Positions 4,363 through 53,147 are shown, counted from the stretch's first letter. The stretch is 64,000 nucleotides of DNA from an uncultured Gemmatimonadales bacterium (GCA_963850905.1 CAWKMU010000003.1:1408001-1472000), one strand, 5' to 3'. Numbers and translations are program-made. Notes: generated from the sequence alone by a model not told the origin.

Positions 4363-6256
4363 ATGGGCCGCAGGCGCAAACGCAGCGGGGGCGGGCCGCG
4401 CCGGACGCGCGAAGCGCGCGAATCGGCGGCGCTGAGCGTCAGCCAGCCATCGTCGCGTCCGTCGCCGCCTGATCCGCTGGGAGCGACCGTTGCGGCCGGA
4501 GTGCAATGCTCCCAGTGCCAGGCGACCAACACGCCTGACGCACGATACTGCGAGAAGTGCGGAACCGCATTGACGAACCCGGACGCGACGACGCTCGTGC
4601 TGGCTCCGCACGAGCTGGCCGACGCCCGAGTGACACCGCGAGTGTCGGCCGGCGCGCCCGACACCCAACGGTACAGCAGCGGAGGCGCACCACGATCGGC
4701 TGAGGTCCATGTCCTCACGCGTACCCTCTCAGGACAGGCGGGGGACGCCCTGCTGCAGCTGGTGCGTCGTGAGTTAGCCGAGGACTACGATGTCGAGCGG
4801 GAAATCGGGCGTGGCGGGATGGCCATCGTCTACCGCGGCGTCGAGCGCCAGCTGCGGCGAACGGTCGCGCTCAAGGTGCTGCCGCCCGAATTGTTGCTGG
4901 GTCCCGCCGTGATCGGTCGTTTCGAGCGCGAGGCGCAAATGGCTGCCGCGCTAGACCACCCCAGCATCATACCGATCTACCGGGTCGGACAGACGGCCTC
5001 GCTCGCCTACTTGGCGATGAAGTATGTCGAAGGGCGCGGGCTCGATCGAGTGATTGCCGAGCAGGGGGCACTGCCAATAGCGGTCGTGGTATCGGTGCTC
5101 CGAGCTGCAACCAGCGCGTTCGCCTACGCGCACGCGCATGGCATCGTCCACCGGGACGTCAAGGGCGGCAACATCCTGATCGACCGCGAGGGCCGCGTCA
5201 TTGTCACTGATTTTGGCGTAGCGCGCGCGATCGACAACGCGTCGATGACCACGACCGGGTCGGTGATCGGCACGCCCTATTTCATGAGCCCGGAGCAGTG
5301 TGCGGGGAAGGTGGCCGCGCCGCAGTCGGACCAGTACTCCCTCGGCGTCGTCGCGTTTCAGAATGCTGACGGGCGCGCTGCCCTTTCAAGCCGACACGCT
5401 CGCGGCGATCATGCACCACCACTTCTTCACACCGGCGCCAGATGTAACCAAGGCGCGCCAGGACATCCCGAGTGAGCTGACAGCGATCCTCACCCGCGTC
5501 TTGTCAAAGGATCCCGATCGCCGGTACGCAACGACGAACGACATGCTGGATGCCGTCGAGAGCATCCCCGTGAGCGAGGCCGATCGCGCGGCTGGAGAAG
5601 GGATGCTGCGGACGCTCGCGGGCGGGACGCCGCTGCCAGCGGTTCGAACGAGCGCGCTCCCCCCGCTCGAAGACACGATGGCGGTCGTCGCCGCGCACGA
5701 TGCGTTCCGCCGATCGAGCCAACGGAGACGGCGCGTGCGGCGAGTGAGCGGGGCGAGCGCGGTCGTGGTGGCATCGGTGCTCGGGCTGTGGCTGTGGCGG
5801 CGTCCGTTGTCAGTGGCGGCCACAGCGCCCGGTGGCACTTCACACGGGCCGGGGGGCGCCGAGCCGGCAAATGCGGCGCCACAAACGGTGTCGGTACCTG
5901 CGCCGGTGGTCACGCCGTCTGCGAACCCGTTTCCGCCTGGTGCGACGGCCGTGGTGCCCCAAGCACCGGCGCCAGTGCTGGTCCAGCCGTCGGCACTGCC
6001 GGAGTCCACCGCGCAACCGGCGGTCGACACTGCGACCGGGAAGCTGCGGGTGCGTGCGTTCCCTGGCGACGCGCTCATCATGATCGACAACGAGACGATC
6101 GGGCAGGGCGCGGTGCTGGACCACGACGTGCTCGCCGGCGAGCGGCACCTGCGGATCGTGGCACCGGGCTACGTCGACTTCGACACGACAATCGTCGTGA
6201 CGGCAGGCACGACCACTCGGTTGAGCGCCATCGAGCTGAAGGCAGTCGAGCCATGA
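4363..6256 (+). pseudogene. Membrane Ser/Thr protein kinase with N-terminal zinc ribbon and C-terminal PEGA-like domain. Apparent +1 frameshift at about 5362, possibly a sequencing artefact
   Basis: CSQC/CEKC ribbon; GRGGMAIVY, VALK, HRDVKGGN, DFG, GTPYFMSPEQ motifs. Kinase C-lobe (MLTGALPF...KDPDRRY), TM helix, Pro-rich linker and PEGA-like end continue in the next frame. Deleting one A at 5362-5363 gives VAFQMLTG. Confidence 0.9.
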
Positions 6257-7311
6257 TGCGCCGCTGGCCGGTGCGAATCCTCGCGGCGTGTCTGATGATG
6301 CTGCCGCGCGCCGTCGCGGCGCAGAGCAACACCGATGAGATGCTCCACCGCGCGATCCGCTTATACGAAGACCTCCAGGTCGAACGCGCCCTCGCGATGT
6401 TTCGCGACGTGATCTCGCCGAGCTCACCGTTCGTCGTCTCGACGGCGCAACGAGTGATGGCGTACAAGTACCTCGGCGCGGCCCACGCGACGTTGGGCCA
6501 GCCGGATTCGGCGTCGGTGTATTTCCGCGCGGCCATCGAACGCGATCCATTCGTCGATCTGGACGGTCACGATTTTACTGCGCGCGAACGCGAGGTCTTT
6601 GCCGATGCCAAGCAGCGCACCTTCGCCGTCGCGGTTCGCCCCATCGCGCGAACGCGAATCGATCCGCGCACCGAGCACATGCTGTTCCAGACGTTGACGA
6701 CCCACGGCGCGTTGCTGCGAGCCGAGATACGCACATCCACTGGCGAGATCTCGCCGATTTTCGAATCGGACAACGACGGTGTGCGCGAAATCCCCTGGAA
6801 CGGTGTCCTCGCATCTGGTCGATTGGCTGCACCCGGCACGTACGAGCTCGTCGTCCGAGGGGACAGCCGATTGATTCCATCGCGGTCCGACTCGGCGCGG
6901 TTGTTCTTTACGATCGAGCACGACCGGCCGCCGCTGGAAGACACACTTCCGGAGCTCGAACCGAGTGACCTGTTGCCGGAGCATCGCCCCGCGTCGGCGG
7001 CGACCGTCGAACTGGCCAAGGGGGTCGGGGTAGGGGTCCTCGCGATCGCCATGCCGACGTTGCTGGGTCATGGCGAGTTTGCCAGCCCGAGCCGCGGCCT
7101 GGCGGCTACCGTCAGCGCGACCGGCATCGCGGTCGGCATCTTCGGGTTTCGTTGGCGCCACGAACACAACGAGCTGGCGGAGAACATCGCCGAGAATACC
7201 CGACGGCGCACGGCGCGCGCGGCGCGCAACGCGGAGATCAAGCAGGGCAATGAGGCCAAGCTCGCGCTGACGGCGCTCGTGATCAGTCCCGCAGCCGGGG
7301 TGGGGCCATGA
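6253..7311 (+). CDS. Secreted TPR-containing protein with FlgD-Ig-like domain and C-terminal hydrophobic helices
   Basis: ATG overlaps the kinase stop. Signal peptide ends AVAA-Q. TPR-like 'AYKYLGAAHATLGQPDSASVYFRAAIERDP'. 'IPWNG...GRLAAPGTYELVV' is FlgD-Ig-like. Confidence 0.75.
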   Translation: MMRRWPVRILAACLMMLPRAVAAQSNTDEMLHRAIRLYEDLQVERALAMFRDVISPSSPFVVSTAQRVMAYKYLGAAHATLGQPDSASVYFRAAIERDPFVDLDGHDFTAREREVFADAKQRTFAVAVRPIARTRIDPRTEHMLFQTLTTHGALLRAEIRTSTGEISPIFESDNDGVREIPWNGVLASGRLAAPGTYELVVRGDSRLIPSRSDSARLFFTIEHDRPPLEDTLPELEPSDLLPEHRPASAATVELAKGVGVGVLAIAMPTLLGHGEFASPSRGLAATVSATGIAVGIFGFRWRHEHNELAENIAENTRRRTARAARNAEIKQGNEAKLALTALVISPAAGVGP

Positions 7312-7964
7312 TCGCGCGTCCGCTGGTAGGTTGTGTGGCGTTACTCGCTCTTCCCCTCGCGGCAGTCCCCGTCGCCGCACAGATCACCGTCACCCCTTCG
7401 GTCTTCGTCGCCTACGTGCAGCACCAGGTCGACATTGGTTACGGCGACGAGCAAACCAGCGGGCCGGTGCTCGGCGCGACGGTTTCCGTGGCCCCGACTC
7501 GATGGACCGACGTCACGTTGTCCGGCTACACCGGGACGCTCAACGCCGACTCGGCGATCGTGGATTCGCGCCGGATGGCAGATCTCGAGCTCGGGGGGAG
7601 CATCTTTGCGACGTCCACGCTGGCGTTGCAGATCGGGTTGCGCGCGCAGAGCTATACGACGACACTGGCTCGGCAACGCTGGCTCTCGGTCAGTGTCGGC
7701 GGCGAGTACGGTCCTGAGATCTTTGATGGGGTCGCCCGCGCCGTCCTGCGGGCCGGCCTGATCCCCGTGGCGAACGTCAGCGGGCTACCAAGCCCCACGT
7801 TTGCCGTCCTGGCGAGCACCGGGTTTCAGGTGCTCCGTGGACCCCTCACCGGCGGGCTGTTCTTCTCGATCGAGCGCTACGACTTCCCGAGCAACAACGG
7901 CGCGCCGCGGGCGGAACAACTGGAGATGTTGACGGCCCAGGTGGGAGTGAGGTTTCCGAGATAA
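7308..7964 (+). CDS. Putative small outer-membrane beta-barrel protein
   Basis: Signal peptide (VAA-Q), alternating amphipathic strands, C-terminal 'AQVGVRFPR' beta-signal-like end. ATGA overlap with the upstream gene. Confidence 0.7.
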   Translation: MIARPLVGCVALLALPLAAVPVAAQITVTPSVFVAYVQHQVDIGYGDEQTSGPVLGATVSVAPTRWTDVTLSGYTGTLNADSAIVDSRRMADLELGGSIFATSTLALQIGLRAQSYTTTLARQRWLSVSVGGEYGPEIFDGVARAVLRAGLIPVANVSGLPSPTFAVLASTGFQVLRGPLTGGLFFSIERYDFPSNNGAPRAEQLEMLTAQVGVRFPR

Positions 7965-7987
7965 GGGAACTGGAGGCGTCTAGCCTT

Positions 7988-9154
7988 TCATTTCCCCCCG
8001 GTGTTCGTATCTATATGCGCCGTCACCGACATGCCGGGGCGGAGCCGGCGGTTTGGGTCGACCGGATCGGTCGGTCGGAGGCGGACCGGGATGCGTTGTA
8101 CGACCTTGGTGAAGTTCCCCGTGGCGTTGTCGGGCGGGAGGAGCGCGAACTGTGCGCCCGTGGCGGCGGCAATGCTCTCGACGACGGCGTTGAACGTGTG
8201 GCCGCCGTAAGCGTCGACGTCGAGTTGCACTGCTTGGCCAACCCGGATGTCGTCGAGCTGGGTCTCCTTGAAGTTGGCGTCGACCCAAACGCCGGTGTCT
8301 GCGACGACGGTGAACAGAGTTTGCCCTGTCTGTACCAACTGACCCACTTCGACCTGCTTGCGCGATAACACGCCGCTGACGGGCGCGAGGATGCGTGTGT
8401 AGGACTGGTTCAGCACGGCTTGCTGTAACTCGGCTTGTGACGCGGCCAGGCGCGCCTGCGCCAGACGCACACCCGCCTGCGCGTTGGTCACGGTCGCACC
8501 GGCAGCGGCTGCCTGCTTCTGGGCGGCGATCAGGGAGGCATGCGCCGCGTCAGCAGTGGCCTGTACGGCGTCCAACTGCTGCTTAGAGACGATTTGTTGA
8601 TTCGCGAGCTGCTGGATGCGGCGCAGGTCCGACGTGGCTTTGTCGTAATTCGCCTGTGCGGCCGCGATTTGCGCGTCGGTCGCGGCGCTTTGGCCCTCGG
8701 CGGTCGCGACCTGTGCGGCGGCCTGGCCGGTATATCCCCGCATACCCACAGCCGCTTCTGCGCCCACAAAATCGGCCTGGGCCTGGGCTAGTCGCGCCTT
8801 GTAGTCCGCATCGTCGAGGACGACGAGCGTGTCGCCCTCGTTCACGTGCTGATTCTCCACGCCGTTGACCCTGAGGGCGTAGCCACCAACCTTGGCCAAC
8901 ACCGGCACGAGATGCCCTTGGACATACGCGTCATCGGTTGTCTCGTGCACGCGGGAATAGAGGAACGTCCTCACGCCCCACGTGATGGCGGCAACGCCCG
9001 CAATGCAGCCGAGCGCGATCAAGACGAGGCGGCGGCCGGGGCGCGCGGGAGTGGTGCTCACGCCCGATCCGGGCGGAGCTTGCTGGTCAGTCGCGCCTTG
9101 GGTGGCTGGCCGTTGGGGCGGTGCCTGCTGCTCGGGGCGAGCGGTGGTAGCCAT
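7988..9154 (-). CDS. HlyD/EmrA-family efflux membrane fusion protein
   Basis: TTDDAYV, long coiled coil, ANFKETQL, 'FALLPPDNATGNFTKVVQRIPVR', LRPGMSV. Confidence 0.95.
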   Translation of the reverse strand: MATTARPEQQAPPQRPATQGATDQQAPPGSGVSTTPARPGRRLVLIALGCIAGVAAITWGVRTFLYSRVHETTDDAYVQGHLVPVLAKVGGYALRVNGVENQHVNEGDTLVVLDDADYKARLAQAQADFVGAEAAVGMRGYTGQAAAQVATAEGQSAATDAQIAAAQANYDKATSDLRRIQQLANQQIVSKQQLDAVQATADAAHASLIAAQKQAAAAGATVTNAQAGVRLAQARLAASQAELQQAVLNQSYTRILAPVSGVLSRKQVEVGQLVQTGQTLFTVVADTGVWVDANFKETQLDDIRVGQAVQLDVDAYGGHTFNAVVESIAAATGAQFALLPPDNATGNFTKVVQRIPVRLRPTDPVDPNRRLRPGMSVTAHIDTNTGGK

Positions 9155-9157
9155 GGC

Positions 9158-9277
9158 TCAGAGTCGGGTGGTGGTAGAGGAGCGACGCTCGTGGTGGTGG
9201 CGGTCGGCGGGCGGACAGTCCGCGTCTGGCGCGGGCGTCGGCGAGCGGTCGCGACTGAGAAGACACGAATTTTTCAT
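9158..9277 (-). CDS. Possible 39-aa bridging peptide between tolC and hlyD
   Basis: ATG overlaps the tolC stop (ATGA). TGA lies 3 nt before the hlyD ATG in the same frame. No family recognised. Confidence 0.25.
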   Translation of the reverse strand: MKNSCLLSRDRSPTPAPDADCPPADRHHHERRSSTTTRL

Positions 9278-10764
9278 GGCAATTCCGTGACCGAACCGGT
9301 CGCTCGGGCGAGCGACACGCGCGCCGCCTGATAGCTGGTGAGGGCGTTCACCTGCAACGTTCGGGCGCTGTTGAGGTCGAGCGATGCGGTGATGACATCC
9401 GCATTGCCCGCGACGCCGGCTCGAAAGCGTTCCTGCGATTCGCTGAGCTCCTGCTGTGTGAGGCGCAACTGCTCGTCGGCAGCATCGAGTTGCTGACGGG
9501 CGGCCGCGAGGTCGAGAAATGCCCGCCGAACGTCGATCGCAGCCTGCTGTCGCAGGTCGCGTTGCTGCACCTGGAGTTGTCTCGTGACCGCTTGTTGCTC
9601 TTCGATGCGGGCTTCGCGACGCAGTCCGTCGAACACCGGAATTGTCACGCCAATGCCCCAGCTGTAAACGGGGAGCATGCGGACATAGTTGCCGCCTTGG
9701 ATGCCCTTGTTGCCGAACACATCGAGTGACGGCAAGCGCTCGGCCCGAATGGCTGACACCTGCTGCTGGGCGGCGGTCAGCTGCTCATCGAGCGCACGCA
9801 GATCCGGCCGGTGCCGGAGCGCGAGGTCGATCTCGTCGGTTTCGCGTGGCAGCGTATCGCTGATCGGCATGCTGCTGAGGGAATCGCTGAGGACGACGTG
9901 GGCGTCGAGTGACAGGCCCAAGGCGCGCAGCAAATCCAGCTGGGTTCGATCACGGTCGCTGCGCGCGGCGATGAGCTGCGCGCGGGTCGATGCGAGTTGC
10001 GCCTGCGCCCGGGTGACGTCGAGTGCAATCCCGACGCCAGCCTGGAGCTGTTGTCGAGCGATGTTGAGGAGGTCCGCCGCCAGCGACGAATCCGCCAGTC
10101 GGGCCTCCAGCACCGCATTCGCCTGTTGGACCGCCAAGTACGCGGCGGCGGCACTCCCCGCAGCATTCTGGGCCGAGCTGGATGCGACGGTATTCTGCGC
10201 CTGCTCTGCCATCCGTGCCTGCCGATAACGTTGAATCACGGCAAAGTTGAAGAGCGTGTCGTAGGCCCAGCCGCGAAGCTCGGTTGCCTTGATCGGCGGA
10301 AAGTCGACGCCGCTTGGCGGCAGGAACGTGTTGAAATTGAACGGCGACCCGGGCGGCAGCGGGGGGAACCGCAGCAGCGCGGCGCTATTCTCGACGAGCT
10401 CCGTCTCCTGTCCCAGCCCATAGATCGTCGGCAGGAAGGAGCCGCGTTTGAGGTGCGACTGGGCATTGGCCTGCTCAGCCTGGGCTCGGGCCTCCTGTGC
10501 GGTGGCGCTCTGATGCGCGGCGAGCCGTGCCGCATCACCCAGGGAGAGCACCCGGGTGCTCGTGTCTTCCTGGCCTGCAGCGGAGCGCGGACCCGCCGCG
10601 ACTGCGGCGACCGTCGCGGCAGTGAGGACGAGTGCCGCCCGGACGGTGCGCAACGTGGTAGTCAGTGCGCCGGTGGCAGAACACGAGTGACGCGGACGTG
10701 CGGCGGTCATAGGCAAAGGGCGGTATCCAGAACGGCGTGTGTCAGGTATCGAGTCGAGCGTCAT
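9274..10764 (-). CDS. TolC-family outer membrane efflux protein
   Basis: Signal peptide and two OEP repeats ('GVGIALDVTRAQAQL', 'ERFRAGVAGNADVITA'). Confidence 0.93.
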   Translation of the reverse strand: MTLDSIPDTRRSGYRPLPMTAARPRHSCSATGALTTTLRTVRAALVLTAATVAAVAAGPRSAAGQEDTSTRVLSLGDAARLAAHQSATAQEARAQAEQANAQSHLKRGSFLPTIYGLGQETELVENSAALLRFPPLPPGSPFNFNTFLPPSGVDFPPIKATELRGWAYDTLFNFAVIQRYRQARMAEQAQNTVASSSAQNAAGSAAAAYLAVQQANAVLEARLADSSLAADLLNIARQQLQAGVGIALDVTRAQAQLASTRAQLIAARSDRDRTQLDLLRALGLSLDAHVVLSDSLSSMPISDTLPRETDEIDLALRHRPDLRALDEQLTAAQQQVSAIRAERLPSLDVFGNKGIQGGNYVRMLPVYSWGIGVTIPVFDGLRREARIEEQQAVTRQLQVQQRDLRQQAAIDVRRAFLDLAAARQQLDAADEQLRLTQQELSESQERFRAGVAGNADVITASLDLNSARTLQVNALTSYQAARVSLARATGSVTELP

Positions 10765-11411
10765 GCAGAGCCGGGCGCGGTGGCTCCGACCGGAGCCACC
10801 GCGTGGAAGAAGAAGTCCGTCAACTGCTCAAAAAGCTCCTCGTCGGTGGTCGGAGGAGTGGGGGCGCACACGCCCGAGCTGACCCAGAGCGCGTGCATGG
10901 CAAACATCGACGCCATCATGCGGCCCGCTACGTGGGGATCGATGGGCCGGAACTCGCCAGACTCGATGCCGCGTCGAAAGAGCCGGTCGAGGAACTGCCG
11001 CTTGCGGCTCACCACTTCGTCCCAGTAGAAGGCCATCAACTCGGGGAACCGGTGGAGCTCGGCAATCACCAGCCGCATGACGACCTGGTAGGCCGGGGAC
11101 CGCGTCAGTGACCACAGCCCCTGCATGTAGTCGCGGAGCTGGTCGGTCGCGCTGGCGCCGCGGTCGGCGACGAAGTCTCGTTCCGAGCGTTCGAGGTGGG
11201 CGATGACCGTTTGGCGGATCATCTCCTTGAATAGCGCTTCCTTGTTGGGGAAGTAGAGGTAGATGGTGCCTTTGGCGACGCCTGCGCGCTTGGCGATATC
11301 CTCCAGCCGAGCCCCGGCGAGCCCGTGTTCGCCGAACACTTCGAAGGCTGCCTCGAGGATCTGCTGGGGCCGTTCCTCGGGCAGCCGCCTCCATTTGACG
11401 GCGTTCCCCAT
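10761..11411 (-). CDS. TetR/AcrR-family transcriptional regulator
   Basis: HTH 'ILEAAFEVFGEHGLAGARLEDIAKRAGVAKGTIYLYFPNKEALF'. Confidence 0.95.
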   Translation of the reverse strand: MGNAVKWRRLPEERPQQILEAAFEVFGEHGLAGARLEDIAKRAGVAKGTIYLYFPNKEALFKEMIRQTVIAHLERSERDFVADRGASATDQLRDYMQGLWSLTRSPAYQVVMRLVIAELHRFPELMAFYWDEVVSRKRQFLDRLFRRGIESGEFRPIDPHVAGRMMASMFAMHALWVSSGVCAPTPPTTDEELFEQLTDFFFHAVAPVGATAPGSA

Positions 11412-11423
11412 GCCCGACAACTT

Positions 11424-11437
11424 ACTGACCGGTCAGT
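11424..11437. promoter_or_regulatory. Probable TetR operator
   Basis: Perfect 14-bp palindrome ACTGACCGGTCAGT 13 bp upstream of the tetR ATG. Confidence 0.7.
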
Positions 11438-11490
11438 CAGGAAGCAACCGGGGGCCTGGGGCCCCAAACCCCAGACCCCGCGTCTCTGCC

Positions 11491-30064: not shown

Positions 30065-33015
30065 GTGGACCGTGTCCGTATGAGCTATCAGCCGAACGCC
30101 CGCCACGCTAGATGGCGGCGGCCGACGTCGCTCGTGCGATCGATCGCTCCGCTGCTGGCGAGCGGTCTCATCTGGATCGCCATGCCAGCCCAGGGCAAGA
30201 GCCAGGGCGTCGGCACCGATGCGGGCGACTCGTCGGGCGTGCTTGCCGGCGAGCTCAAAGGATTCGACGCTGGCGAGCCGATTGCGTACGCGACGATCGA
30301 CCTGGTCAACGTCGCCCGCGCCAGCTTCGCCGACGCGCGGGGTGCTTTTCGACTGACCCGGCTCGTCCCCGGGCAGTATCACCTGCGTGCACGTCAGATC
30401 GGATATGCGCCCCTCGATACAATCGTCCAGGTCGATCCAGGGCCGAGCGAGACAACGCTGTCCCTGCGCCTCCACAGGGTGGCGCTCAAGCTCGCGCGCG
30501 TCTCCATCGCCGGGCGCCGTGGCAAAGGATGTCTGGCGACGGGCATACCGGACTCGCTCGTCAATCCGTCGCTCGCGGGGATCTTCGGCCAGGTAAGAGA
30601 GAACGTCGATCGCCTTCGCCTGCTGCTCGACGAGTACCCGTTTCAGTTCTCCCGCGAAGAACGGCGCTTCATTCGCAGCGATCCGGGTGGGGACTCAGCG
30701 GTAGTTATTGACACGGTGGACTACGAATCACGTGCGCGTCGACCCTACAAAGTCGGGAGCGTCGTCTACGTGGACTACGACGCAGTAGGACGCCGAACAC
30801 GGATGATGTATCTGCCGACCTTCCGCGACCTCGCGGATCCGGCATTTCTCGCAGCTCACTGCTTCACTTATGGCGGCACGGAGGGTCTGGGTGGCCACGG
30901 CACGCAGGTCCTGCGCGTGGATTTCCAGCCGGCCAGCCGCATCTCGGCGCCAGATGTCGAAGGGTCGGTGTACCTCGACGCGCAGAGCTTCATCGTTCGG
31001 CGAGCGGTATTTCGTCTGACGAGGCCGGGAGCGGCCAAGCCGCCAGTCTTGGGGCTCGAGGTCACCACCTCGTTTCGCGAGCTCGTGCCGCTCGTGCCGG
31101 TCTTCGACTCGGTGGAGTCAAACCAGCAAATGCCGACTGGTTCGAGCTCGAGCGGCCAAGGCCTCGTTGGGGGGAGCACGACCGTGGTCCGGTCCGCCGT
31201 GGAGGATGACCGGCTCTTGGGCTTCACCTTCGAGCAGCGGACACCTGGCGATACCGGAAGCGCTCGATCGGCGACGGCGACACGTGTCGGGGCGACCCCG
31301 GCGACCCCGGCGGCCGTTGTCGCGAGTGCGCCTGCAACACCGGCTCCCATGTTGAGCGGGCGCGTCGTGCAGCCCGATGGGACGCCGGTCGCCGGCGCGA
31401 CCGTAGGCGTGTCCGGGATGCGTGACACCACGACGACGAGCGACAGCGGCACTTTTGTATTTGCTGGCGTGTCGCCGGGCCCACATATGCTCGCGGTGCG
31501 GCGACTCGGCTTCGATCCGACGCGCACAGCCGTCACCGTCTCCCGCGACCACGCCTCCCCGATGACGATCACCATCGTCCGCAGCGTGCGGGTGTTGCCG
31601 ACTGTGGTGACCACCGCGGAGAAACGAGGATACAAGGAGGTGGGCCTCGATCGGCGCATGAAGGCAGGCGCTGGGCAATACCTGACGTACCAGCAGATCG
31701 AACGTCGGCAGGCGACGAAACTGTCCCAGCTGTTGAACGGCATGCGCGGCATCCAGGTGCGACAGGCCCCCAAGAACTTCAATTCCACGGTTGAAGGCAC
31801 CCGCGGGGTTGGCAGTTGCGTCGGGTTCGTCATCGACGGCGTCCCACAGGCACAACTCGCCAGCACGACCATAACGGGCAGCGTCCTGGCGCCCGACGAC
31901 GCCGACAACCTGATCGACCCATCCGCAATCGCCGCGATCGAGGTGTATAGCTCGAGCGAGCGGCCGGTGGAGTTCGGGGCGGGACTCGAGGAGCGGGCGC
32001 CGACGCCACCGGGAGAAGCAGCCCCGGCGATCGACCTCAACGCTCAGCAGTGCAATTTGGTCGTGATCTGGACCAAGGCGCGGCTGGGTCTTCCAGAGGA
32101 CACGGGGCCATCGACCGCGAGCGATCGAAGTGCGGCACGCGCTCGGGCAGTGTTCCCCAATGTCACGATGTGTGAGCCCAAGCCCGCCGACGACACGATC
32201 GCGCTGGCGGTGGTCGCGGCGCTGCAGGGCGGACAAGCGCAAGAGCGGTCTGACACAGCGTGGTCGGCCTATCTGAACGGTGTGCTCGGCGCCGTGCGCA
32301 GCACGTTCGTCATGCCGACCGACCTTCCGCTCAAGGTGTTCGGTTACCCGTTCAGGGAGTCGGCCCCCGTAGTCGCATCGGCGGCCGCCGCTGCTAGCCC
32401 GGCGAGTGCAGCCGCACCCGGCTTTGCAACGGTCGTCGCCTTTTCGCTCGACTCGGCTGGGAGTGCGAGTCGTATCCGAGTGGCCGCATCGTCACTGTCA
32501 GGAGCGGTCGATACCACGATCCTCGCTGCCGTAGCCAATGCCGCCGCGGCGCACGCCTTTCCTCATCTGCCCTCGTCGCACCGCGCCGACGGGGCAATTC
32601 GCTTCGACCTCGTCGTATCGACGGGCCAAGGATCGGTTGGAGGCCATTCGGCGATTCTCGGTCATCTCTTCGCCCCAATGTGGCCTCTGCGTCGACCGGC
32701 GTCGTTGGCGGACGGTACGCAACCGGATCTTGCGACCGGCGCGGGGCCGACTCGCATCGGGACCGACAGCGTCACGCTGGAGTTTGTGGTGGACGACCAG
32801 GGCCGCGTCGCAATGTCGACGGTCCGCGCGGTCGGCCTGGCGACCGGCGGCGAGTCAGAATGCCGCCGACCGCGCGTTCCTCGGCCGCGTCGTCCACGCA
32901 TTACCGAAGCTTTCGATTCGAGCCTGCGCTCATCGGCGCGTGCCCGGTGCGACAGATGATGATTACCGGATTCTCGCTCCATGGCGCCATCGGCATCATG
33001 CCGGGAATGCGTTGA
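30065..33015 (+). pseudogene. Secreted multi-domain protein: two carboxypeptidase-regulatory-like domains, plug-like domain, TonB C-terminal-like domains. Two apparent +1 frameshifts (about 32860 and 32910)
   Basis: RQIGYAP and RRLGFDP domains; 'IDPSAIAAIEVY...C.LVVIWTK' plug-like segment. TonB-C consensus reads across three frames: LEFVVDDQGRV / DRAFLGRVVHALP / RFEPALIGACPVRQ. Confidence 0.8.
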
Positions 33016-43484: not shown

Positions 43485-43487
43485 ACT

Positions 43488-44418
43488 TCATGGCCTGCTC
43501 AAGTCCAATCCCTGCGCCAGCAGGCCCTGTTGTACCAACCGTTGCAGCGCCGTGCCGTCATGACTGACGGCGACCGTGATGCCGGCGGCCACGACGTCCT
43601 CTTTCAGCCACGCGATCTCCTGGCCAATCGCGACGCGGTCTTCACCCATTTGCTTGCTGGTGGAGTCAGGCTTTTGCCGACCGGTCTCGATACCGGCGTT
43701 GTGCCAGACGACGTCGCCGACCAGCACGACCTCGCGGCCGGAGGCGAGCTTGACGTATACCATTCTGGGAGCCAGGCGTGTGCCCTGGCGCACGAATCAG
43801 CACGACCCCAGGCGCGATCGGCAACGCTCGCTGGTAATCGACGACCAAGAATCGGCGCGCGCTGGCCGCATCGAGTCCCGCGGAGGGCCGCGGATGGTCA
43901 ACCAGCGTTTGAACCTGCTGCTTCGTGAGCATCGTCTTGAACGCGACGTCGCGTTCGATCGCCGGCCGGGTCAGCGTGCCGACGTGGTCTCCGTGCTCGT
44001 GGGTGATCACGATCAGGCGAGCGCCGCGCAGGGCTGCGACGATCTGGTCGTAGTGGTCGGGGAAGAATGTGCCGCTGTTACCGGCTGCTTGCTTGTCGTA
44101 AGTCGCGTCTACCATCACCCAGCCGTGTGGGAATCGGATCTGAAACGCTGGCGTCACCTGGTACACCTTCATGTGCGGCGCGCCGGCGACGGCGTCGGAT
44201 TCAGGTGTCGAGTCGTCTTGCACGCTCAGATAGCCGATCGACGCTGGCAGTTCTCCGGGAACCGCCTTGCTGAGCGCCCTCAGGTCCTGCAGCAGGCCTT
44301 CGGCGTACGGATTGGTGTTCTGTGCCCCGACGCGTGCGGTCCCCGCAACAGTGAGCGACACGAGGAGCGCGACATGCGTGAGCAGACGAATGTCAGAGTG
44401 CGTCGTCTTGGCAGCCAT
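43488..44418 (-). pseudogene. Secreted metallo-beta-lactamase-fold hydrolase. Apparent +1 frameshift at about 43763
   Basis: GAGGAGG RBS, THEHGDHVG, GHTPGSQ, then MVYVKL...VGDVVW...VSHD in the next frame. Removing one base at CATTCTG (43761-43767) fuses them. Confidence 0.88.
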
Positions 44419-44520
44419 CGTGCCTCCTCGATGGTGTGGCTGTGAGCCCGCGTGGACTGATGAATCACTCACAATTAACGGATCCGCCGCGTCGTTCAAG
44501 GTGTCGAACCAAACCCCGGA

Positions 44521-45684: not shown

Positions 45685-45729
45685 GGAACCAAGGGGTTGG
45701 GGTTCGAGATACGGTACGACACGAACCGC

Positions 45730-45754
45730 GGTCGACGCAATGCGTCGCCCCTGC
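45730..45754. repeat. REP-like palindrome (GTAG family), degenerate copy
   Basis: GGTCGACGCAATGCGTCGCCCCTGC matches the copies at 50958 and 61246. Confidence 0.75.
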
Positions 45755-47709
45755 TACTTCTCGCGCGGCGGGATGACGAGGAGTGTGATCGAGTTGGCGG
45801 GGTAGGTCTGCGTGAAGCCGTGCAGATGGACCCAGCGATCGGTCGCGCGCACGATCGCCGCCGGGTTGGCGGGTGTCAGCTGGTACACCTGAACCGGGCC
45901 ACCTGGCGCGAAGTCCGCCAGCGACACCGCGGCGTGGATGTCGTTGGCGGTCTTGTTGATCGCGATGAGCGTGAGCGCGCTGTCAGCCGTGCGCTGCGCC
46001 CCGTAGATCGCAAGAGTGTCCGGCCCGGCGCTGGTCGAGCTCACCCACGTGTCGCCGTACCGGCTGCCGGCGCCGTCGTAGTTACGATAGATCCGGAAGG
46101 CATTGGCGCCTACCCAGGTCGTCTGTGGCGGCCCCCACAAAGTCGCGAGATCGAGCGATTCGCGGCCAAAGATGCCCAATACATCGGCCTGCGCGAGCGC
46201 GCCATTGATGGAGTTGAGGCCGCCCCAGTTGTACTCTGTGATCCCGATCTTCGTCCCCGGGTAGTACTGGTTCACCCATTTATGAAAGGTGCGGATCAGT
46301 TGAATCGGCGGATACCACTGGCCGATCCAATTCTCCTCGCGATATGTCGAATCCCAGAGCGACCGTGTGGAGCGGAGACGGGCGGCCTGGACCGCCGCGG
46401 TCCCTGGGGTCCCGTCGAAGGTGACAACGCCGGCGGGCGACGCGTAGAAGTGCTCGGTGAACACGTCGAGGAGCCGAGTCCCGTGCGACGTCTCGTACTG
46501 CTGCATCTGCTGCAGGTAGTACCACGCGTTCCACAGTCCACCGTTCTGGGCGGGAGTCCCCACATAGACGGCCCAGCCGAAGTCCTCCGGGCCCGCAAGC
46601 ATTGCCGTCGGATCGACGCCCTTGATCGTGCCACCATAGAGCAGCGTCCGCTGGACGAGGTCCTCATAGGTGATTTGCCCGGGCGAGACGTCGCGGTGCG
46701 TGTTGCCCCAGCCGCTCGGCTCGTTGTCCATCGCGAAGAACGTGATGCCACCCTTACTCGCGTCACCGTACTTACTCGTGAGGTGCTGAATCCAGCCCTG
46801 TTGCAGCGTTGCAGAATTGGCCACGTGAATGCGGAGGATCTGGCTCGAGTTCGGCGTGATCACCGAATCGCCTGGCGTCATGCCATTGCCGCACCCGCTC
46901 ACGTACGGGTTGACGGCTTGCTGCGGACCGAAGATCGAGACGGGAAACGTGCAGTCCGACTTGTTACTCGGCACACTGTTGACGTAGTCGATGATCGGGA
47001 CCGAAAGGAACGTCGTCACACCGACACTCTTGTTACGATCGACCATGGCATCGGCGGACCCACTCGGCGTCACCGTCGAGGCACCCCCGCCGGCCATGAA
47101 ATACCAGTCCCCGCCGGAGTTGCTCGCGTCGACCTGCCAGTTATAGCGCGTGATGCCGTCGCCGCCCCAACGCGTAATGGTGATGCCGAGGTCTTGCAGA
47201 TACGATGCGGTCAGACCGAAGGTACTCACGCCATAGATGTACGGGCTGATGGCGTGACGACCACTCGTCGCGTCGACTGCGAGCGCGGGCGCACTTGCAT
47301 CGGCAGCGGCTTCCGGCGGCATGACGCCGACGACCGCATGGCCGCTCTGTCCGTGGACAGTCGCACTGATGCGAACGATCCCTGATGCGATCCCGGTCAC
47401 TGTCCCCGTCGACGACACTCGCGCGACACTCGTGTCACTGCTCGACCACGTGATGGTATCCGATGTGATGGCGTGACCGCTGGAATCTGCGATATGGGCC
47501 GTCAGCGCCAACGTGCTGCTGATCGATAGGTCCGTATCGCCTGGGCTGACGGAGATCGTGGCAGCGGTCGGTCCATGCGCCGCGGGCCCGACGCTCGCGC
47601 CAGGCGACGCACACGACAAGATCACGCACGCCACTGACGCCAGTGCGACTATGACCCTCAAGGTGTGCGAGCGGGGGCGTGCATCGCCGCCGTTGCGGAT
47701 AGTCGGCAT
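45754..47709 (-). CDS. Glycoside hydrolase family 44 lipoprotein with N-terminal Big_2 domain
   Basis: ILS-C lipobox; Ig unit; ISPYIYG, RWGG...TRYNW, MDNEP..W..THRDV, RLRSTRSLWD..Y, ITEYNWG. Start uncertain. Confidence 0.9.
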   Translation of the reverse strand: MPTIRNGGDARPRSHTLRVIVALASVACVILSCASPGASVGPAAHGPTAATISVSPGDTDLSISSTLALTAHIADSSGHAITSDTITWSSSDTSVARVSSTGTVTGIASGIVRISATVHGQSGHAVVGVMPPEAAADASAPALAVDATSGRHAISPYIYGVSTFGLTASYLQDLGITITRWGGDGITRYNWQVDASNSGGDWYFMAGGGASTVTPSGSADAMVDRNKSVGVTTFLSVPIIDYVNSVPSNKSDCTFPVSIFGPQQAVNPYVSGCGNGMTPGDSVITPNSSQILRIHVANSATLQQGWIQHLTSKYGDASKGGITFFAMDNEPSGWGNTHRDVSPGQITYEDLVQRTLLYGGTIKGVDPTAMLAGPEDFGWAVYVGTPAQNGGLWNAWYYLQQMQQYETSHGTRLLDVFTEHFYASPAGVVTFDGTPGTAAVQAARLRSTRSLWDSTYREENWIGQWYPPIQLIRTFHKWVNQYYPGTKIGITEYNWGGLNSINGALAQADVLGIFGRESLDLATLWGPPQTTWVGANAFRIYRNYDGAGSRYGDTWVSSTSAGPDTLAIYGAQRTADSALTLIAINKTANDIHAAVSLADFAPGGPVQVYQLTPANPAAIVRATDRWVHLHGFTQTYPANSITLLVIPPREK

Positions 47710-47884
47710 GCATACTCCGCGGCCGGAGTCGGAGAGCGTTGGACGAGTCCCCAACAAGGTTGTGCCATCGGCCAGGAATGGCCGTCACGCGGCGCGCCCA
47801 CATCGTCACCTCGCGCGATCATGAGCCGCCAGAGTGAGGAAAACGGGGGGCGAAGAAAGGCCGCAGGCCGGTGGCGCTGACGGG

Positions 47885-48370
47885 TCAGTCGACTGTGCTC
47901 TTCAACCGCCCACGAACATTGGTCTCGAGATCGGCGGGGTCGCCCGCGAGCCCGGTGAGATCGACCGACAGATCGGTCAATCCGAGCTCACGATTGAGAG
48001 CAACCATGCGTAGAAGAGTTGGGGGCAGCCGAGTCGTGTACTTCGCGGCATTGCGCAGGTGCAGACATAGCTGTGTCCGGCCCTGCACTCGCTTGAGTGT
48101 CACGTCCGTGATGTCATTCCATGCGATGACGCCGATGGCGAAGGTACGATCGAGCACGCCGCGGTCATCGATCACCAAGCGCGGGCGAGCGTCGTAGAAC
48201 TGCCATCCGGCGAACAGCGTCCCGGCGCCGCACGCAACGAGGATGATCCACCCCGCAGTCGGCTGGAATCGCACGCCGATCAGAATGCCGCCAATGGCGG
48301 TGAGCACGCCCGCCGCAAGCGCAGCAAGCCCCCAATTACGGCGAGGTGCGCCAATGACAATGGGTTGCAT
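47885..48370 (-). CDS. Two-TM membrane protein with PH-like domain (STM3941-like)
   Basis: Two TMs, then 'PRLVIDDRGVLD......IAWNDI'. Confidence 0.75.
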   Translation of the reverse strand: MQPIVIGAPRRNWGLAALAAGVLTAIGGILIGVRFQPTAGWIILVACGAGTLFAGWQFYDARPRLVIDDRGVLDRTFAIGVIAWNDITDVTLKRVQGRTQLCLHLRNAAKYTTRLPPTLLRMVALNRELGLTDLSVDLTGLAGDPADLETNVRGRLKSTVD

Positions 48371-48497
48371 GACGGAAACTATAGCGGCAGGGGTTTACAC
48401 GTCGGAGTGAGTGGCAAAACGGGACGGAGCAAGTAGACTCTAGTGGACCCCCGTGTAGCTCCCACCGTCCTACCGTTCTGATCAAACGTTGACGTCA

Positions 48498-49208
48498 ATG
48501 AGAGTGAGCCTCCGCCGCGCAATGCTTCCGGCTCTAGTCAGTATGTCGAGGGCAGTGTCCGCGCAGTCGACGCCGGCACCACCCGCCGGTGCACAGGCGC
48601 CGACGATTCAATGTGCGGATTCGTCGGCCGGCGGCAGGATCGGCAGTACCGCGTGTACGATTTTCGCGAAGCGGGTGGTCCGGGAATTTCCGGGTCGCGC
48701 AGACACCGTTGTATGGAACGTGGCGGCTTTCTCCACACGTCTGGAGGCCGAGTCACGCCAGACCCCCACCTCGGCAGTCATCGAGATGGACAACAGGTTC
48801 TGGCTCCTGAACATCGCCCCGACCGTCAATCGCCAGGAGCGTGCCCTTCGAACCTCGGCGATCACGCCCATTCCGTTGCCGCCAGCCAAGAGCTACGAGA
48901 TCATATTTGCCTACGTTGCTGTGCCGCCGGGGGCGCACTCGGCGATTCATGTCCAGTCGGGGCCCGAAGCCTGGTACGTGCTCGCGGGCTCGCAGTGCGT
49001 CGAGACTCCGGATACGGTGTTGCACATTCGACAAGGCGCCGGTGGCATGGTGCCTGCCGACACGCCGTTGTATCTGGTCGCGACCGGGACGACGACACGG
49101 CGAGCGTTCTTCGTCATTGTCCACGACGCGGAACGACCGTTCTATACGGAGATCGACTCGTGGCATCCGCGCGGCAAATGTGGAAAGACGGTAGACGCTA
49201 GACGCTAG
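48498..49208 (+). CDS. Secreted cupin-domain protein
   Basis: 'HVQSGPEAWYVLAGSQCVETP', 'VPADTPL.L..TG...RRA...VHD'. Confidence 0.75.
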   Translation: MRVSLRRAMLPALVSMSRAVSAQSTPAPPAGAQAPTIQCADSSAGGRIGSTACTIFAKRVVREFPGRADTVVWNVAAFSTRLEAESRQTPTSAVIEMDNRFWLLNIAPTVNRQERALRTSAITPIPLPPAKSYEIIFAYVAVPPGAHSAIHVQSGPEAWYVLAGSQCVETPDTVLHIRQGAGGMVPADTPLYLVATGTTTRRAFFVIVHDAERPFYTEIDSWHPRGKCGKTVDARR

Positions 49209-49288
49209 ACGCTAGACGCTAGAACGCACCACGGCTGGCCTCGCGCTTTGTCATCCAGCGTCCAACGTCCAGCGGACCAGCGTCCAGC
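49191..49288. repeat. Heptamer tandem (TAGACGC)x4+ with degenerate inverted arm (TCCAGCG)n
   Basis: GTAGACGCTAGACGCTAGACGCTAGACGCTAGA overlaps the cupin stop; TCCAGCGTCCAACGTCCAGCGGACCAGCGTCCAGC at 49254-49288. Confidence 0.85.
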
Positions 49289-49403
49289 CTTCCCTGTATC
49301 GATCGTGCAACGGCCTTGTAAGCGATACCGAGGTGAGCTATATGGAACCCCGGTTGGCAATTGGGATCGCGCTGGCGGTTTCTCACCCTAGTTCGGACTG
49401 GCC

Positions 49404-50951
49404 ATGTCGAGCTTGTCCTTCCTCGATCGAGAGCACTCCCTAGCGGGACCGCGCTACACGCGGTGGCTCGTGCCCCCTGCCGCACTCGCCATCCATCTGT
49501 GCATCGGCCAGGTGTACGCCTACAGCGTCTTCAAGCTTCCGATGACGACGTTGCTCGGCATCACCACTTCGACGCCGAGCGATTGGCAGCAGACCACGAT
49601 CGCACACCTCTTCCAGGTCGCCATCGCGTTTCTCGGGGTTTCAGCCGCGGTGTTCGGCGCGTGGCTCGAGCGCGCCGGTCCACGCAAGGCAATGTTCGCG
49701 TCAGCGCTGTGCTTCAGCGGAGGGTTCCTGATCGGTGCCTTCGGTATCTGGGTGCATCAGTTCTGGATCGTCATGCTTGGCTACGGCGTACTGGGCGGCA
49801 TCGGGCTGGGACTCGGCTACATCTCACCGGTCTCGACACTCATCAAGTGGTTCCCGGACAGGCCGGGGATGGCGACTGGCTTGGCGATCATGGGATTTGG
49901 CGGCGGCGCGCTCATCGCGTCGCCGCTGTCGGTCGCCTTGATGGCGCACTTCAAGTCCACGACATCGATGGGCGTCGCCGAGACGTGGGTGGTCATGGGC
50001 ATCCTTTACTTCATCTTCATGATGTTCGGCGTATTCACCGTGCGACTACCCGTGCCGGGCTGGATGCCAGCGGGGTTTGTACCCGGCGCGACGGCGAAGC
50101 GCATGGTGACGACCGGCAACGTGACGGCTGATGAGGCGATCCGAACGCCGCAGTTCTGGTTGTTGTGGGTCATGTTGTGCGTGAATGTCACGGCGGGGAT
50201 CGGGATCCTCGAGCAGGCCTCGCCCATGATTCAGGAGATGTTCACGGGCGCCGTCACGGCGGTCGTCGCGGGCGGATTCGTCGGCCTACTGAGCGTCGCC
50301 AACATGGCGGGACGCTTTGGCTGGTCATCCACGTCGGACTACATCGGACGCAAGGCGACCTACGCGCTGTTTTTCCTGGTCGGACCACTCTGCTACGCGA
50401 CGATTCCCCACGCTGGTCGGATCCACAGCGTGCCGCTCTTCGTGCTGTGCTGCGCCGTCATTCTCACAATGTACGGCGGCGGGTTCGCGACCATCCCGGC
50501 GTACCTCCGTGATCTGTTCGGTACGATCCAGGTTGGCGCTATCCACGGTCGTGTGCTGACTGCGTGGTCGGTCGCCGGCATCCTCGGGCCCATGCTCGTC
50601 AACGAAATACGGCAATACCAGATCGATCATGGGGTGGCCAAAGCCGACGCGTACACCGTCACCATGTACCTCATGGCGGCGCTCCTGCTCGTTGGCTTCG
50701 TTTGCAACCTGCTCGTACGCCCGGTAAGCGAGCGACACTATGAGGCGTCCGGCGCACCGGGGTCGCCGACTCCAGCGGCCGCAGCGGCAATTCCGGGCCG
50801 GGAGCAGCAGCTCCGAGCCGCGGACGCACAGACGGGCGCGGACGATTCGGGCCTCGGCGTGCGCCTGGTCGTTGCGTGGCTCATCGTGGGCATCCCACTG
50901 GCGTGGGGGCTGTGGCAGGTCGTGCAGAAGAGCTTCGCGTTGTTCAAGTAG
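49404..50951 (+). CDS. OFA (oxalate:formate antiporter-like) MFS transporter
   Basis: RWLVPPAALAIHLCIGQVYA, GYISPVSTLIKWFPDRPGMATG, YGGGFATIPAYL; extra C-terminal AWLIVGIPLAWG helix. Confidence 0.93.
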   Translation: MSSLSFLDREHSLAGPRYTRWLVPPAALAIHLCIGQVYAYSVFKLPMTTLLGITTSTPSDWQQTTIAHLFQVAIAFLGVSAAVFGAWLERAGPRKAMFASALCFSGGFLIGAFGIWVHQFWIVMLGYGVLGGIGLGLGYISPVSTLIKWFPDRPGMATGLAIMGFGGGALIASPLSVALMAHFKSTTSMGVAETWVVMGILYFIFMMFGVFTVRLPVPGWMPAGFVPGATAKRMVTTGNVTADEAIRTPQFWLLWVMLCVNVTAGIGILEQASPMIQEMFTGAVTAVVAGGFVGLLSVANMAGRFGWSSTSDYIGRKATYALFFLVGPLCYATIPHAGRIHSVPLFVLCCAVILTMYGGGFATIPAYLRDLFGTIQVGAIHGRVLTAWSVAGILGPMLVNEIRQYQIDHGVAKADAYTVTMYLMAALLLVGFVCNLLVRPVSERHYEASGAPGSPTPAAAAAIPGREQQLRAADAQTGADDSGLGVRLVVAWLIVGIPLAWGLWQVVQKSFALFK

Positions 50952-50957
50952 GGCCAG

Positions 50958-50983
50958 TGTAGGGGCGACGCAATGCGTCGCCC
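50958..50983. repeat. REP-like palindrome (GTAG family)
   Basis: TGTAGGGGCGACGCAATGCGTCGCCC between convergent genes. Confidence 0.85.
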
Positions 50984-51022
50984 TCCTGCGCCGCCCATCT
51001 CAGCCGATCGTCGGGGCAGCGT

Positions 51023-53147
51023 TTACAACAGTGCTTCCAGGCGAATCGGCAGATCACGCACGCGTCGGCCCGTCGCATGAAACACGGCGTTGGCGATCGC
51101 CGGTGCGACGCCGACAATCGCGATCTCTCCGATCCCTTTCACGCCGAGGGGATTGACGTGCGGGTCTTCCTCTTCGACGAACAGCGCCTCGAGCGAGCCG
51201 ACGTCGAGATTGACCGGCACGAGATAATCGGTCATTGACGCGTTGACTGGCCGGCCGTCGCGGCGATCAAGGAGTGTTTGCTCCATGAGAGCCATTCCGA
51301 TTCCGCCGACCATGCCGCCGAGGCACTGACTGCGCGCGAGTCGCGGATTGATTATGCGGCCGGCGCTGTACGCACCGACAATGTGCCGCACTCGAATCAT
51401 GCCCAGATCGGGATCGACCGCGACCTCGGCGAAGACGGCACCGAATGCATACATCGAATACCGCCGCCGCTCGTCGCTCGGCTTAGTCGTGCCGACGGCC
51501 TCGATCGGCTGACCGCCGCAGCGAGCGAGGGTCTCACGGTAGGACTCCCCCGGGAGGGCCCTCTTGCAGAATGTCGGTGCGGACGGCGAGACAAGCGGCC
51601 TGCACAGCCGAGCCGACCGACGCCATCGTCATTGACCCGCCGTGGGGCGGGGTGGGCGGAAAGTCCGAAACGCCAATGTCGAGTCGGATCGAGGCGAGCG
51701 GCAGGCCGAGCGTATCGGCGGCCACCTGAGTCATCGACGTATACGTGCCCGGGCCCATGTCGCTCGCCGCCGTCTCGATGACGGCGCTGCCGTCCGGCAG
51801 CAGGCGTGCGCGTGCCTGCGCCCTTCCCTGCACGGCATGATATGCGGTGGCGGCCATCCCCCAGCCAATGCGCAGCCGGCCGTCGCGCATCGAACCCGGC
51901 ACAGGACTCCGTCTCGTCCAGCCGAAGTGGTCCGCGGCCCGAGCATAGCATTCGCGCAGTGACCTGCTCGAGAACGGCCGGCCATCACTCTCATTGATCG
52001 TCGGCTCATTGCGAAGCCGCAACTCGACCGGGTCGATCGCGAGCGCGACGGCCAACTCATCCATCGCTGTCTCCAACGCAAAGAAGCCACTCGCCGCCCC
52101 CGGCCCGCGCATGTAGGTCGGTGTGCTCTGATCCACCGGGACAATGCGGTAGCGCGTGCATACGTTCGGACAGCTGTACATGTACGTCGACGGTTCGGTG
52201 AGCGACTCCGTGAATTCCTCGTAGCGCGACGTTTCTGCGCTGCCTTCGTGGATGATGCCCAGCAGGCGGCCGTTGCGCTCGGCCGAAAGCACGACGCGCT
52301 GGACCGTATACGGCCGATGGCCGGTCGAGTTGTACATCTGACGTCGCGACAGCACGAGCTTGACCGGGCGCTTGACGTGTCGTGCCGCGATCGCGGCCAA
52401 CGTCACGTGTGGCCAGGTCCGCAGACTGGCGCCAAAGGCGCCACCAATGTACGGACACACGACGCGTACATTGGCCACAGGCAGTCCAAGCACTGCGGCG
52501 AGCTCCTTGGCTTCGCTCGCCACGTACTGACTCTTGCTCCATACGGTCAGCTGGTCGCCATCCCATGCGGCGATGGTCGCGGGCGGCTCCATGGGATTGT
52601 GGTTCTCGCGCATGATGCGGTACGTCACGTCGATCGTCGCTGCCGGTTGGCCGATGGCCGCCGGGTCGCCTCGCCGGGTGTCGGGCGGTGGGTCGGTGCC
52701 CGCGGGCGAGACGGGCGCGGCTTCAGGCGCGTCAATGAGAACGACCGGAGGGCGAGCATCGTATCGGATCTGGAGCGCGGCCGCGGCGTGCTCCGCGTCT
52801 TCGAGCGTTGAGGCGACGACGACTGCTACAGGCTGACCGAAGAACCGGACCTCGTCATCCTGCAGTACGTGCAGTCGCTCCCCGGTCTCCGGATCGACAT
52901 ACGACCGGTATGGCGCGTACGGGAGGCGCGGGGCATTGAGGTGCGTCAGTAGCGCCACGACGCCGGGGAGGTGCTCGATGCGCTCCGCTTCGATCGCCCG
53001 GATGCGCCCTCGGCCGATCGTACTGGTGACGATGATCGCGTAGGCCTGGCTCGGCAGATCGAACTCGGCGGCGTAGCGCGCGGCGCCGGTCACCTTTGCC
53101 GGTCCGTCGACACGTGGTACCGGTGCCCCCATCATCGGGTCGCTCAC
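51023..53147 (-). pseudogene. paoC: Xanthine dehydrogenase-family molybdopterin subunit (PaoC/YagR-like). Apparent +1 frameshift at about 51545-51575
   Basis: RVDGPAKVTGAARY, HNPMEP, YIGGAFG, MRGPG, DMGPGTYT, HGGSMT. C-terminal part (FGAVFAEV.VD, GVKGIGE, RVRDLPI) is in another frame. Confidence 0.9.

Follow-up and report, generated by a model that had tools for sequence, protein, structure and literature searches.

Background

Errors linked to DNA methylation are an established class of fault in nanopore assemblies (10.1101/2023.09.15.556300; PMC11610603; 10.64898/2026.01.14.699587). The passages of these papers that bear on the subject describe ambiguity between A and G at a minimal RA motif (10.1101/2023.09.15.556300) and give the G-to-A change (G2A) as the top R10 excess at methylated motifs (10.64898/2026.01.14.699587). 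Here, a probable instance of this class is described from a stretch of 64,000 nucleotides of an uncultured Gemmatimonadales bacterium (GCA_963850905.1, CAWKMU010000003.1:1408001-1472000), referred to as the window, in which four genes are interrupted at the word CAGAATG. The window is positions C3:1408001-1472000 of an assembly, G000, of 4.49 Mb in 6 contigs that is 82% complete; the names of homologues suggest Gemmatimonadota. The errors point to the motif (A/C)GATG and to a lone D12-class adenine methyltransferase, encoded outside the window, as the predicted writer of N6-methyladenine (m6A) within it.

The N-terminal domain of M.FokI recognises GGATG, with AGATG as a star site (PMC3985630). 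The GATG/CATC m6A system MhoVII of Mycoplasma hominis was first validated in 2026, in a report that calls the motif virtually unknown in print; its beta-class YhdJ domain writes GATG and its D12 domain writes CATC, the two being fused and paired with a nuclease (PMC12898733). CamA is an orphan m6A methyltransferase of the gamma group that targets CAAAAA and has proven phenotypes (PMC8187626, in the sections consulted). Within the same phylum, the one methylome found, that of Gemmatirosa kalamazoonensis, contains the m6A motifs RGATCY, ATGCAC and CCAGN7TCA and no GATG motif (PMC3974934). No report of GATG methylation or of the present D12 orphan family was found in the literature on Gemmatimonadota, though REBASE and closed supplements may list the motif, and the main text of Nanomotif names neither GATG nor a Gemmatimonad, though its supplements may do so.

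Four interrupted genes

A preliminary description of the window had placed CAGAATG in four broken genes and held that removal of one base from each, giving CAGATG, restores the frame. The word was located as described, and the frame changes by +1 at each site. A single removal suffices for the kinase, the metallo-beta-lactamase (MBL)-fold hydrolase and the paoC-like gene, whereas the gene with a TonB-C-like end needs two. The genes and their extra bases, the latter given as false, are as follows:

4363..6256, + strand: Ser/Thr kinase (zinc ribbon, PEGA domain), 630 aa once the extra base is left out
5359..5365, + strand: false extra A (5362) in CAGATG of the kinase gene; absent from a 282-bp run X4 contig
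30065..33015, + strand: carboxypeptidase-regulatory-like and Plug domain protein (Pfam) with a TonB-C-like end; 982 aa with both bases removed
32856..32862, + strand: false extra base (32859) at CAGATG of the TonB-C-ending gene; a run X5 contig (depth 2) lacks it and the relative G004 has one base fewer
32904..32912, + strand: second extra A (32907) in this gene, within CCG-A-AGCTT and so not at GATG; absent from a 569-bp run X2 contig and from G004
43488..44499, - strand: MBL-fold hydrolase; 336 aa without the extra base; weak Lactamase_B_2 match under the curated cut-off
43761..43767, - strand: false extra A (T at 43763 on the + strand) at CAGATG of the hydrolase gene; contigs of X2 and X3 (two studies) and G004 lack the base
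51023..53147, - strand: molybdopterin-binding subunit (paoC/xdhA-like); Pfam MoCoBD_1, MoCoBD_2 and Ald_Xan_dh_C
51567..51573, + strand: false extra A (51570) at a CAGATG that the paoC-like gene carries on its template strand; absent from a 553-bp run X1 contig, with G004 one base shorter

Once the extra base is dropped, the products lengthen from 370 to 630 aa (kinase), from 277 to 336 aa (hydrolase) and from 537 to 707 aa (paoC-like). Pfam searches with the two kinase pieces show the Pkinase domain interrupted at profile position 188 of 263, with PEGA in the second frame. In the TonB-C-ending gene, removal of one base gives a frame running to 1206 aa and removal of two gives 982 aa, and the 982-aa product shares 89% identity across 981 residues with the intact G004 orthologue. 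The TonB-C label is that of the preliminary description; the protein encoded at 30065..33015 has no Pfam match to TonB-C. The paoC-like gene adjoins genes for FAD and 2Fe-2S subunits.

Independent evidence comes from a comparison of two 19.9-kb stretches of the window (39.8 of 64 kb) with contigs of public soil runs, five in number and drawn from two studies. All five contigs that cover the four sites lack the extra base: X4 at 5362, X5 at 32859, X2 and X3 at 43763, and X1 at 51570. In the 282-bp contig of X4 (depth 2.9) the extra base at 5362 is the sole difference from the window. The contig of X1 places the paoC-like break at 51570, and not in the C5 run at 51547-51551 that had been suggested as an alternative. 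At 32907, which X5 spans at depth 2, no gap is listed for that run. The loose ends of the public-run contigs carry what we take to be Nextera adapter sequence, which suggests short reads. At three of the four sites the relative G004, which is 92% identical, is one base shorter. At the kinase site the extra A is absent from seven of eight other-genome loci and from one further kinase locus, and present in G004.

The sites lie on both strands and in no repeat tract, and relatives lack the base except for G004 at the kinase, a pattern that does not fit programmed frameshifting or phase variation. Together with the motif-clustered gaps and the frameshift scan described below, the contigs bear out the earlier view that the four genes are intact and that neither ribosomal frameshifting nor true mutation is likely; the four frameshifts are almost certainly assembly consensus errors, not biology.

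Two other gap rows were rejected: that at 50972 is contradicted by two other runs, and that at 7593 by run X2 and G004. G004 has single-base differences of its own at the orthologues of window positions 2897, 43672 and 52340; those at 43672 and 52340 break the same hydrolase and paoC-like genes elsewhere, and 52340 is a CAGATG-to-CGAGATG site.

The error motif

Within the window CAGAATG occurs nine times against 5.15 expected, a count reached in 7 of 100 shuffles, and the five copies outside the four sites sit in unbroken frames. Genome-wide the word is not over-represented (442 against 413 expected, Markov). In a reference-free codon-model scan for +1 frameshifts across the whole of G000, AGAATG is the top 6-mer (31/1,250) and GAGATG the second. 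Flagged rates are 4.75% for CAGAATG (21/442), 3.2% for GAGAATG (18/569), 3.4% for TCGAATG (19/554) and 2.4% for CGAGATG, against a background of 0.82% and 0.4% for GGAATG.

A comparison of G000 with G004 gave 292 single-base gaps in 667 kb. Observed gaps (expected in brackets) number 32 (1.7) at AGATG, 13 (6.4) at CGATG, 6 (3.1) at GGATG and 3 (2.5) at TGATG. By hand tally, the 24 gaps in which AGATG becomes AGAATG comprise 8 at CAGATG, 12 at GAGATG, 2 at AAGATG and 2 at TAGATG, and a further 12 extra A fall at CGATG. The two sequences err differently: AGATG gains A or G, while at CGATG the G is read as A or an extra A appears. The error motif is (A/C)GATG, possibly GATG; the true motif may be MGATG, VGATG or plain GATG. 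The effect at (A/C)GATG is real and genome-wide; that all four window sites happen to be CAGAATG is a matter of local chance.

These data bear on the explanation first put forward, namely a modified six-base motif CAGATG/CATCTG written by a Type IIG or Type III enzyme, a BREX-like system or an unusual modification. CAGAATG does have the highest flagged rate among the words tested and is common to all four sites. The six-base motif is nevertheless too narrow, since AGATG errs after any base and CGATG errs too; GAGATG outnumbers CAGATG in events while their rates of extra A per site are alike over the two genomes (12/395 and 8/277), and CGATG shows the largest effect. As the gene searches below also disfavour the proposed writers, we give this explanation very little probability.

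Two further candidate words were set aside. CATG as a second target has 9 gaps against 8.7 expected, and most of its A/T additions lie in the loop of one repeated hairpin; AATG as a separate motif has 21 gaps (4.5 expected), mostly alternative placements of AGATG/GAGATG events. The repeated intergenic hairpin (GGGGCGACGC...GCGTCGCCCC; for example, window 50960-50985) has loop variants CATG and CAATG that look like repeat variants, not errors. The second extra A of the TonB-C-ending gene, at 32907, adjoins AGCT, possibly a second error-prone or modified word. TAATG, GAATG and AAATG show no consistent strand asymmetry in five signal-positive genomes (G001 is mildly biased towards + in all three and in one control), and RGATC shows none. 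GATG is neither clustered at the origin nor avoided (observed/expected, O/E, 1.03). The most depleted 6-mers of G000 are of the ARCGYT type (AACGTT, O/E 0.57; AACGCT/AGCGTT, 0.71; AGCGCT, 0.83), along with AAGCTT (0.58); the ARCGYT-type depletion may reflect restriction-site avoidance.

Substitutions that follow the deposited strand

The same contigs revealed a second type of error. At least 18 CAATG sites of the window read CGATG in the contigs, which accounts for 18 of the 23 listed A>G rows, against a background of 57 such A among 6,818; none of the nine listed T>C rows falls at CATTG. The sites, from contig differences, are:

A at 19492, 19834, 32537, 34478, 35872, 36132, 36166, 36478, 37839, + strand: CAATG reading CGATG in contigs
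A at 37881, 41461, 43138, 48353, 48497, 50468, 51380, 51867, 52143, + strand: CAATG reading CGATG in contigs

Sixteen of the listed sites lie in 32300-52200 and two in 1-19900, thresholds and runs having differed between the stretches; the patchiness suggests local read-depth or strand imbalance.

Across G000, CAATG (4,460) against CATTG (3,306) is the strongest 5-mer asymmetry, mirrored by CGATG (10,975) against CATCG (12,585), so that about 1,150-1,600 CGATG sites read CAATG, on the deposited + strand only. The excess is present on both replichores and keeps its direction across the GC-skew switch. The orientation in which G004 was deposited is the opposite one, yet there too the CAATG excess is on that assembly's own + strand, and the 667 kb aligned between the two contain 390 own-plus substitution events against 112 mirror events. 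The substitution tracks the deposited strand, which cells cannot sense, and it is therefore a property of the consensus step.

A real mutational or phase-variation process targeted to the motif could also have produced both the insertions and CAATG, and G004 does share the kinase insertion, while the public-run contigs could derive from a sister strain. Such a process would have to follow an arbitrary deposited strand and not a replichore, at sites with no repeat tract, and the five covering contigs, all without the bases, match near-exactly elsewhere. It has in our view only a faint chance of being correct.

Candidate methyltransferases

Two DNA methyltransferases were found in G000, one Eco57I-like and one of the D12 class. 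Genes of several other modification systems were looked for and not found in this 82% complete assembly: there is no match to a Type III Mod or other PF01555 gene and no PF00145 (C5 methyltransferase) gene; PglX models score 30-41 bits against cut-offs of 400-900, the Eco57I-like protein falling well short of the BREX thresholds (BrxC was not searched); the one PglZ match was rejected as a BREX protein, being a receiver-domain regulator by its sequence; and of the phosphorothioation and 7-deazaguanine systems, dndC (0/1) and dpdA (0/13) were not found, the ssp genes not having been searched.

The Eco57I-like gene (G000:C3:540445-542937 plus a downstream open reading frame, ORF) has its motifs. 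It is present as two ORFs (L056:8517-12088, that is G000:C3:540517-544088) that overlap at GTGA, namely a catalytic part of 807 aa and, downstream, an ORF resembling the specificity part, where most genera have a single protein of about 1,060-1,130 aa; four other members of the genus have open frames of 805-888 aa, which suggests that the split is real and lineage-specific. What appears from its sequence to be a SNF2-like helicase ORF follows. This gene, or one in the missing part of the assembly, might write a modified GATG-type motif in place of the D12 enzyme. The incompleteness of G000 and the exceptions to the association described below leave room for such a writer, and the CATC enzymes listed in REBASE are said to be solitary gamma-group proteins (PMC12898733, in the part that treats them). 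The Eco57I-like gene, however, does not track the motif signal, being present in 187 of 201 family genomes regardless, including G195 and G093, which lack a CGATG bias; moreover, a signal found in at least five genera calls for a gene that is conserved, and the class that acts on the GGATG strand is the one to which the D12 enzyme corresponds. Another writer is thus unlikely.

The favoured candidate is the following:

G000:C3:968912-970216, outside the window: D12-class adenine methyltransferase, 434 aa; PF02086 match

The gene is intact and its RYIGNK, FxGT and DPPY blocks are conserved in alpha order. It starts with CTG at C3:970216 (G000; L055:10141-10234), with CTG in G004 and with TTG in G001; because of these starts automatic callers cut the first conserved block, and the CTG start restores the N-terminal block. 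The gene lies between mnmG and parAB (names from translations), divergent from parA and 7 kb from the GC-skew minimum. An orthologue occurs in 10 of 10 genomes of the genus and in 69 of 201 of the family (E < 1e-38), with 19 weaker homologues besides; these tallies include the unpublished G016, G055 and G153, of which G016 and G153 are among the 69 carriers and none enters the low-contig test below; nothing else stated here depends on these three. In other genera the orthologue usually follows a CoA-transferase gene and often precedes an ECF sigma gene.

No nuclease was seen beside the gene across 13 loci; of 11 neighbours scanned, 9 belong to non-nuclease Pfam families and 2 to no family. A partner methyltransferase for the CATC strand was likewise not found, G000 having one PF02086 gene and no PF01555 gene. 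With the D12 profile, FokI-type N-halves and one gene of paired plasmid restriction-modification (R-M) systems score E 1e-71 to 1e-92, whereas no Dam-like half does better than 4e-6. In a tree of 30 proteins the 18 D12 orthologues group together (support 89/82), apart from R-M enzymes. Searches of PDB sequences gave no meaningful match; NCBIfam offers no model that fits the D12 protein, and the Atlas yielded D12 clusters only. Distant D12 paralogues (L094, L098, L099, L106-L108) in G005, G008, G009, G048, G124 and G198 form separate clades; G048 and G124 have a weak reciprocal TCAATG/TCGATG asymmetry.

Association of enzyme and signal across the family

Forward and reverse occurrences of TCAATG were counted in the 201 family genomes, of which the 49 with 30 contigs or fewer were taken as likely long-read assemblies. 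Among these, 6 of the 11 that have the D12 orthologue show a TCAATG excess at z>4, and none of the 38 that lack it do so (Fisher p=3e-5); limiting the set to 10 contigs or fewer gives 6/8 and 0/20. The six positive assemblies span five genera and all have a reciprocal TCGATG deficit (z -1.4 to -10.6), strong in four. Four of five further genus members are positive, and at least 10 other assemblies show the substitution signature. None of 58 orthologue carriers in more than 30 contigs is asymmetric at z>4, which also argues against real mutation. Insertion flags at AGAATG/TCGAATG number 21/372 with the orthologue (3.0 expected) and 4/206 without (1.4 expected).

This distribution also bears on a purely technical explanation, an intrinsic weakness of basecaller or polisher at CGATG/AGATG with no DNA modification. 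On nanopore platforms A and G are still confused after DNA has been amplified (10.64898/2026.01.14.699587, in the passages concerned), the + strand bias is itself algorithmic, and pipelines were not controlled. Yet none of the 38 low-contig genomes without the orthologue carries the signal, and error-prone assemblies without it are biased at other words: in G195 and G093 the same + strand G>A bias (z 5.3 and 8.4) concerns another word and is not seen at CGATG (200-kb samples), which argues against an intrinsic word error and makes this explanation quite improbable.

The other deposited-strand G>A signatures are CGT[G>A]G and GT[G>A]GC in G195 (L207-L216) and G093 (L237-L246), and C[G>A]AG in G121 (L247-L256). 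They are probably other methylation motifs.

Origin of the errors

It is fairly probable that the extra bases are assembly errors at (A/C)GATG that arise from m6A in GATG, with the lone D12-class methyltransferase as predicted writer. That DNA modification of some kind underlies the errors is very likely; if so, the D12 enzyme is quite likely the writer. The assembly would be a nanopore-only consensus, and the enzyme would methylate G(m6A)TG on one strand, one strand being proposed because no second-strand enzyme was found. Reads of the methylated strand would then blur G and A, while the opposite strand would read correctly, and the consensus may resolve the conflict wrongly, by placing A over G on the deposited strand or by inserting a purine, at roughly one CGATG site in ten and, for AGATG, at a few percent of sites.

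Several observations weigh against this explanation. The public-run contigs are shallow (depth 2-3 at the four sites, 2-5 overall), the runs may include the source sample and their platform is not on record. The kinase site rests on one contig of depth 2.9 and on frame conservation, and its extra A is shared by G004; we read the shared insertion as the same context-driven error in a similar assembly, yet it counts on the other side. The error at 32907 falls outside GATG, GGATG and TGATG show little or no error, and a partner enzyme could be missing from an assembly that is 82% complete. Among the low-contig carriers, 5 of 11 (G032, G038, G121, G135 and G179) lack a strong substitution signal; of these G121 shows mainly C[G>A]AG, though its enzyme is 88% identical to that of the signal-positive G062. 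Five carriers were also picked in advance: the signal was strong in one alone (933/529), weak in another (239/179) and flat in the remaining three. G002 lacks the substitution signal, though an insertion signal is present (6/55), and G138 (50 contigs, no D12 match) has a TCAATG excess (411/298) with no TCGATG deficit. Contig and z cut-offs were set post hoc, related genomes are not independent of one another, and confounding by sequencing platform is not accounted for.

Implications

G000 is a species-representative assembly, and false G-to-A changes likely number about 1,150-1,600 in it. Scaling the 16 G000 insertion events of the 667 kb to the full 4.49 Mb suggests at least about 110 false insertions as well. 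In assemblies that bear the signature, protein variants and apparent pseudogenes at GATG deserve distrust. Asymmetry between forward and reverse words in deposited assemblies offers a cheap screen for active methylation motifs, and a predicted target (G-m6A-TG, one strand) can be given for an orphan methyltransferase family, so far unstudied, that belongs to an abundant soil phylum.

A wider proposal, to which we assign somewhat less than an even chance, is that about one third of this Gemmatimonadota family, and members of other orders of the phylum, carry a domesticated FokI-type half that methylates GATG-type sites on one strand only and has no nuclease. If true, the lineage as a whole would have an orphan epigenetic mark, on a motif that the literature hardly knows, written by a gene that in this genus lies beside parAB near the origin, and D12 activity would be readable from the strand asymmetry of deposited assemblies alone.

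Comparison with known systems

The errors resemble those linked to methylation in nanopore data, by the published passages on them, in that G/A confusion clusters at a motif, immediately 5' of adenine (RA), penetrance is partial and independent contigs are free of the errors. They differ from the published cases in being known here from finished assemblies alone, as a + strand word asymmetry and single-base insertions, and (A/C)GATG is not among the motifs met in those passages.

With regard to the enzyme, the D12 protein falls by profile and tree in the same subfamily as the M.FokI N-domain and the FokI-type fused or paired plasmid enzymes (L202-L205), at 27-32% identity, and its predicted target shares their GATG core. 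Unlike these, it has no Dam-like second domain, and no partner gene or adjoining FokI-like nuclease was found; it is chromosomal and conserved in place, and the errors point to A or C before GATG, not to the G of M.FokI. With neither a CATC-strand methyltransferase found in the 82% complete G000 nor a cognate endonuclease seen beside the gene, the locus does not qualify as a Type IIS R-M system of the FokI or MhoVII kind. It shares with MhoVII, by the available part of that description, a non-palindromic GATG motif with adenine as the putative methylated base, and is set apart from it as a lone protein of FokI-N type in a genome with no PF01555 gene found.

CamA, as portrayed in the sections consulted, is similar in that the D12 enzyme too is conserved in its lineage, has no cognate nuclease found and has a non-palindromic predicted target; CamA is a gamma-group enzyme, whereas the D12 enzyme is of the alpha group by motif order, with a predicted activity. 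The artefact class itself is well known; what is new here is probably the link between motif and enzyme, together with a probable lineage-wide orphan GATG methylase.

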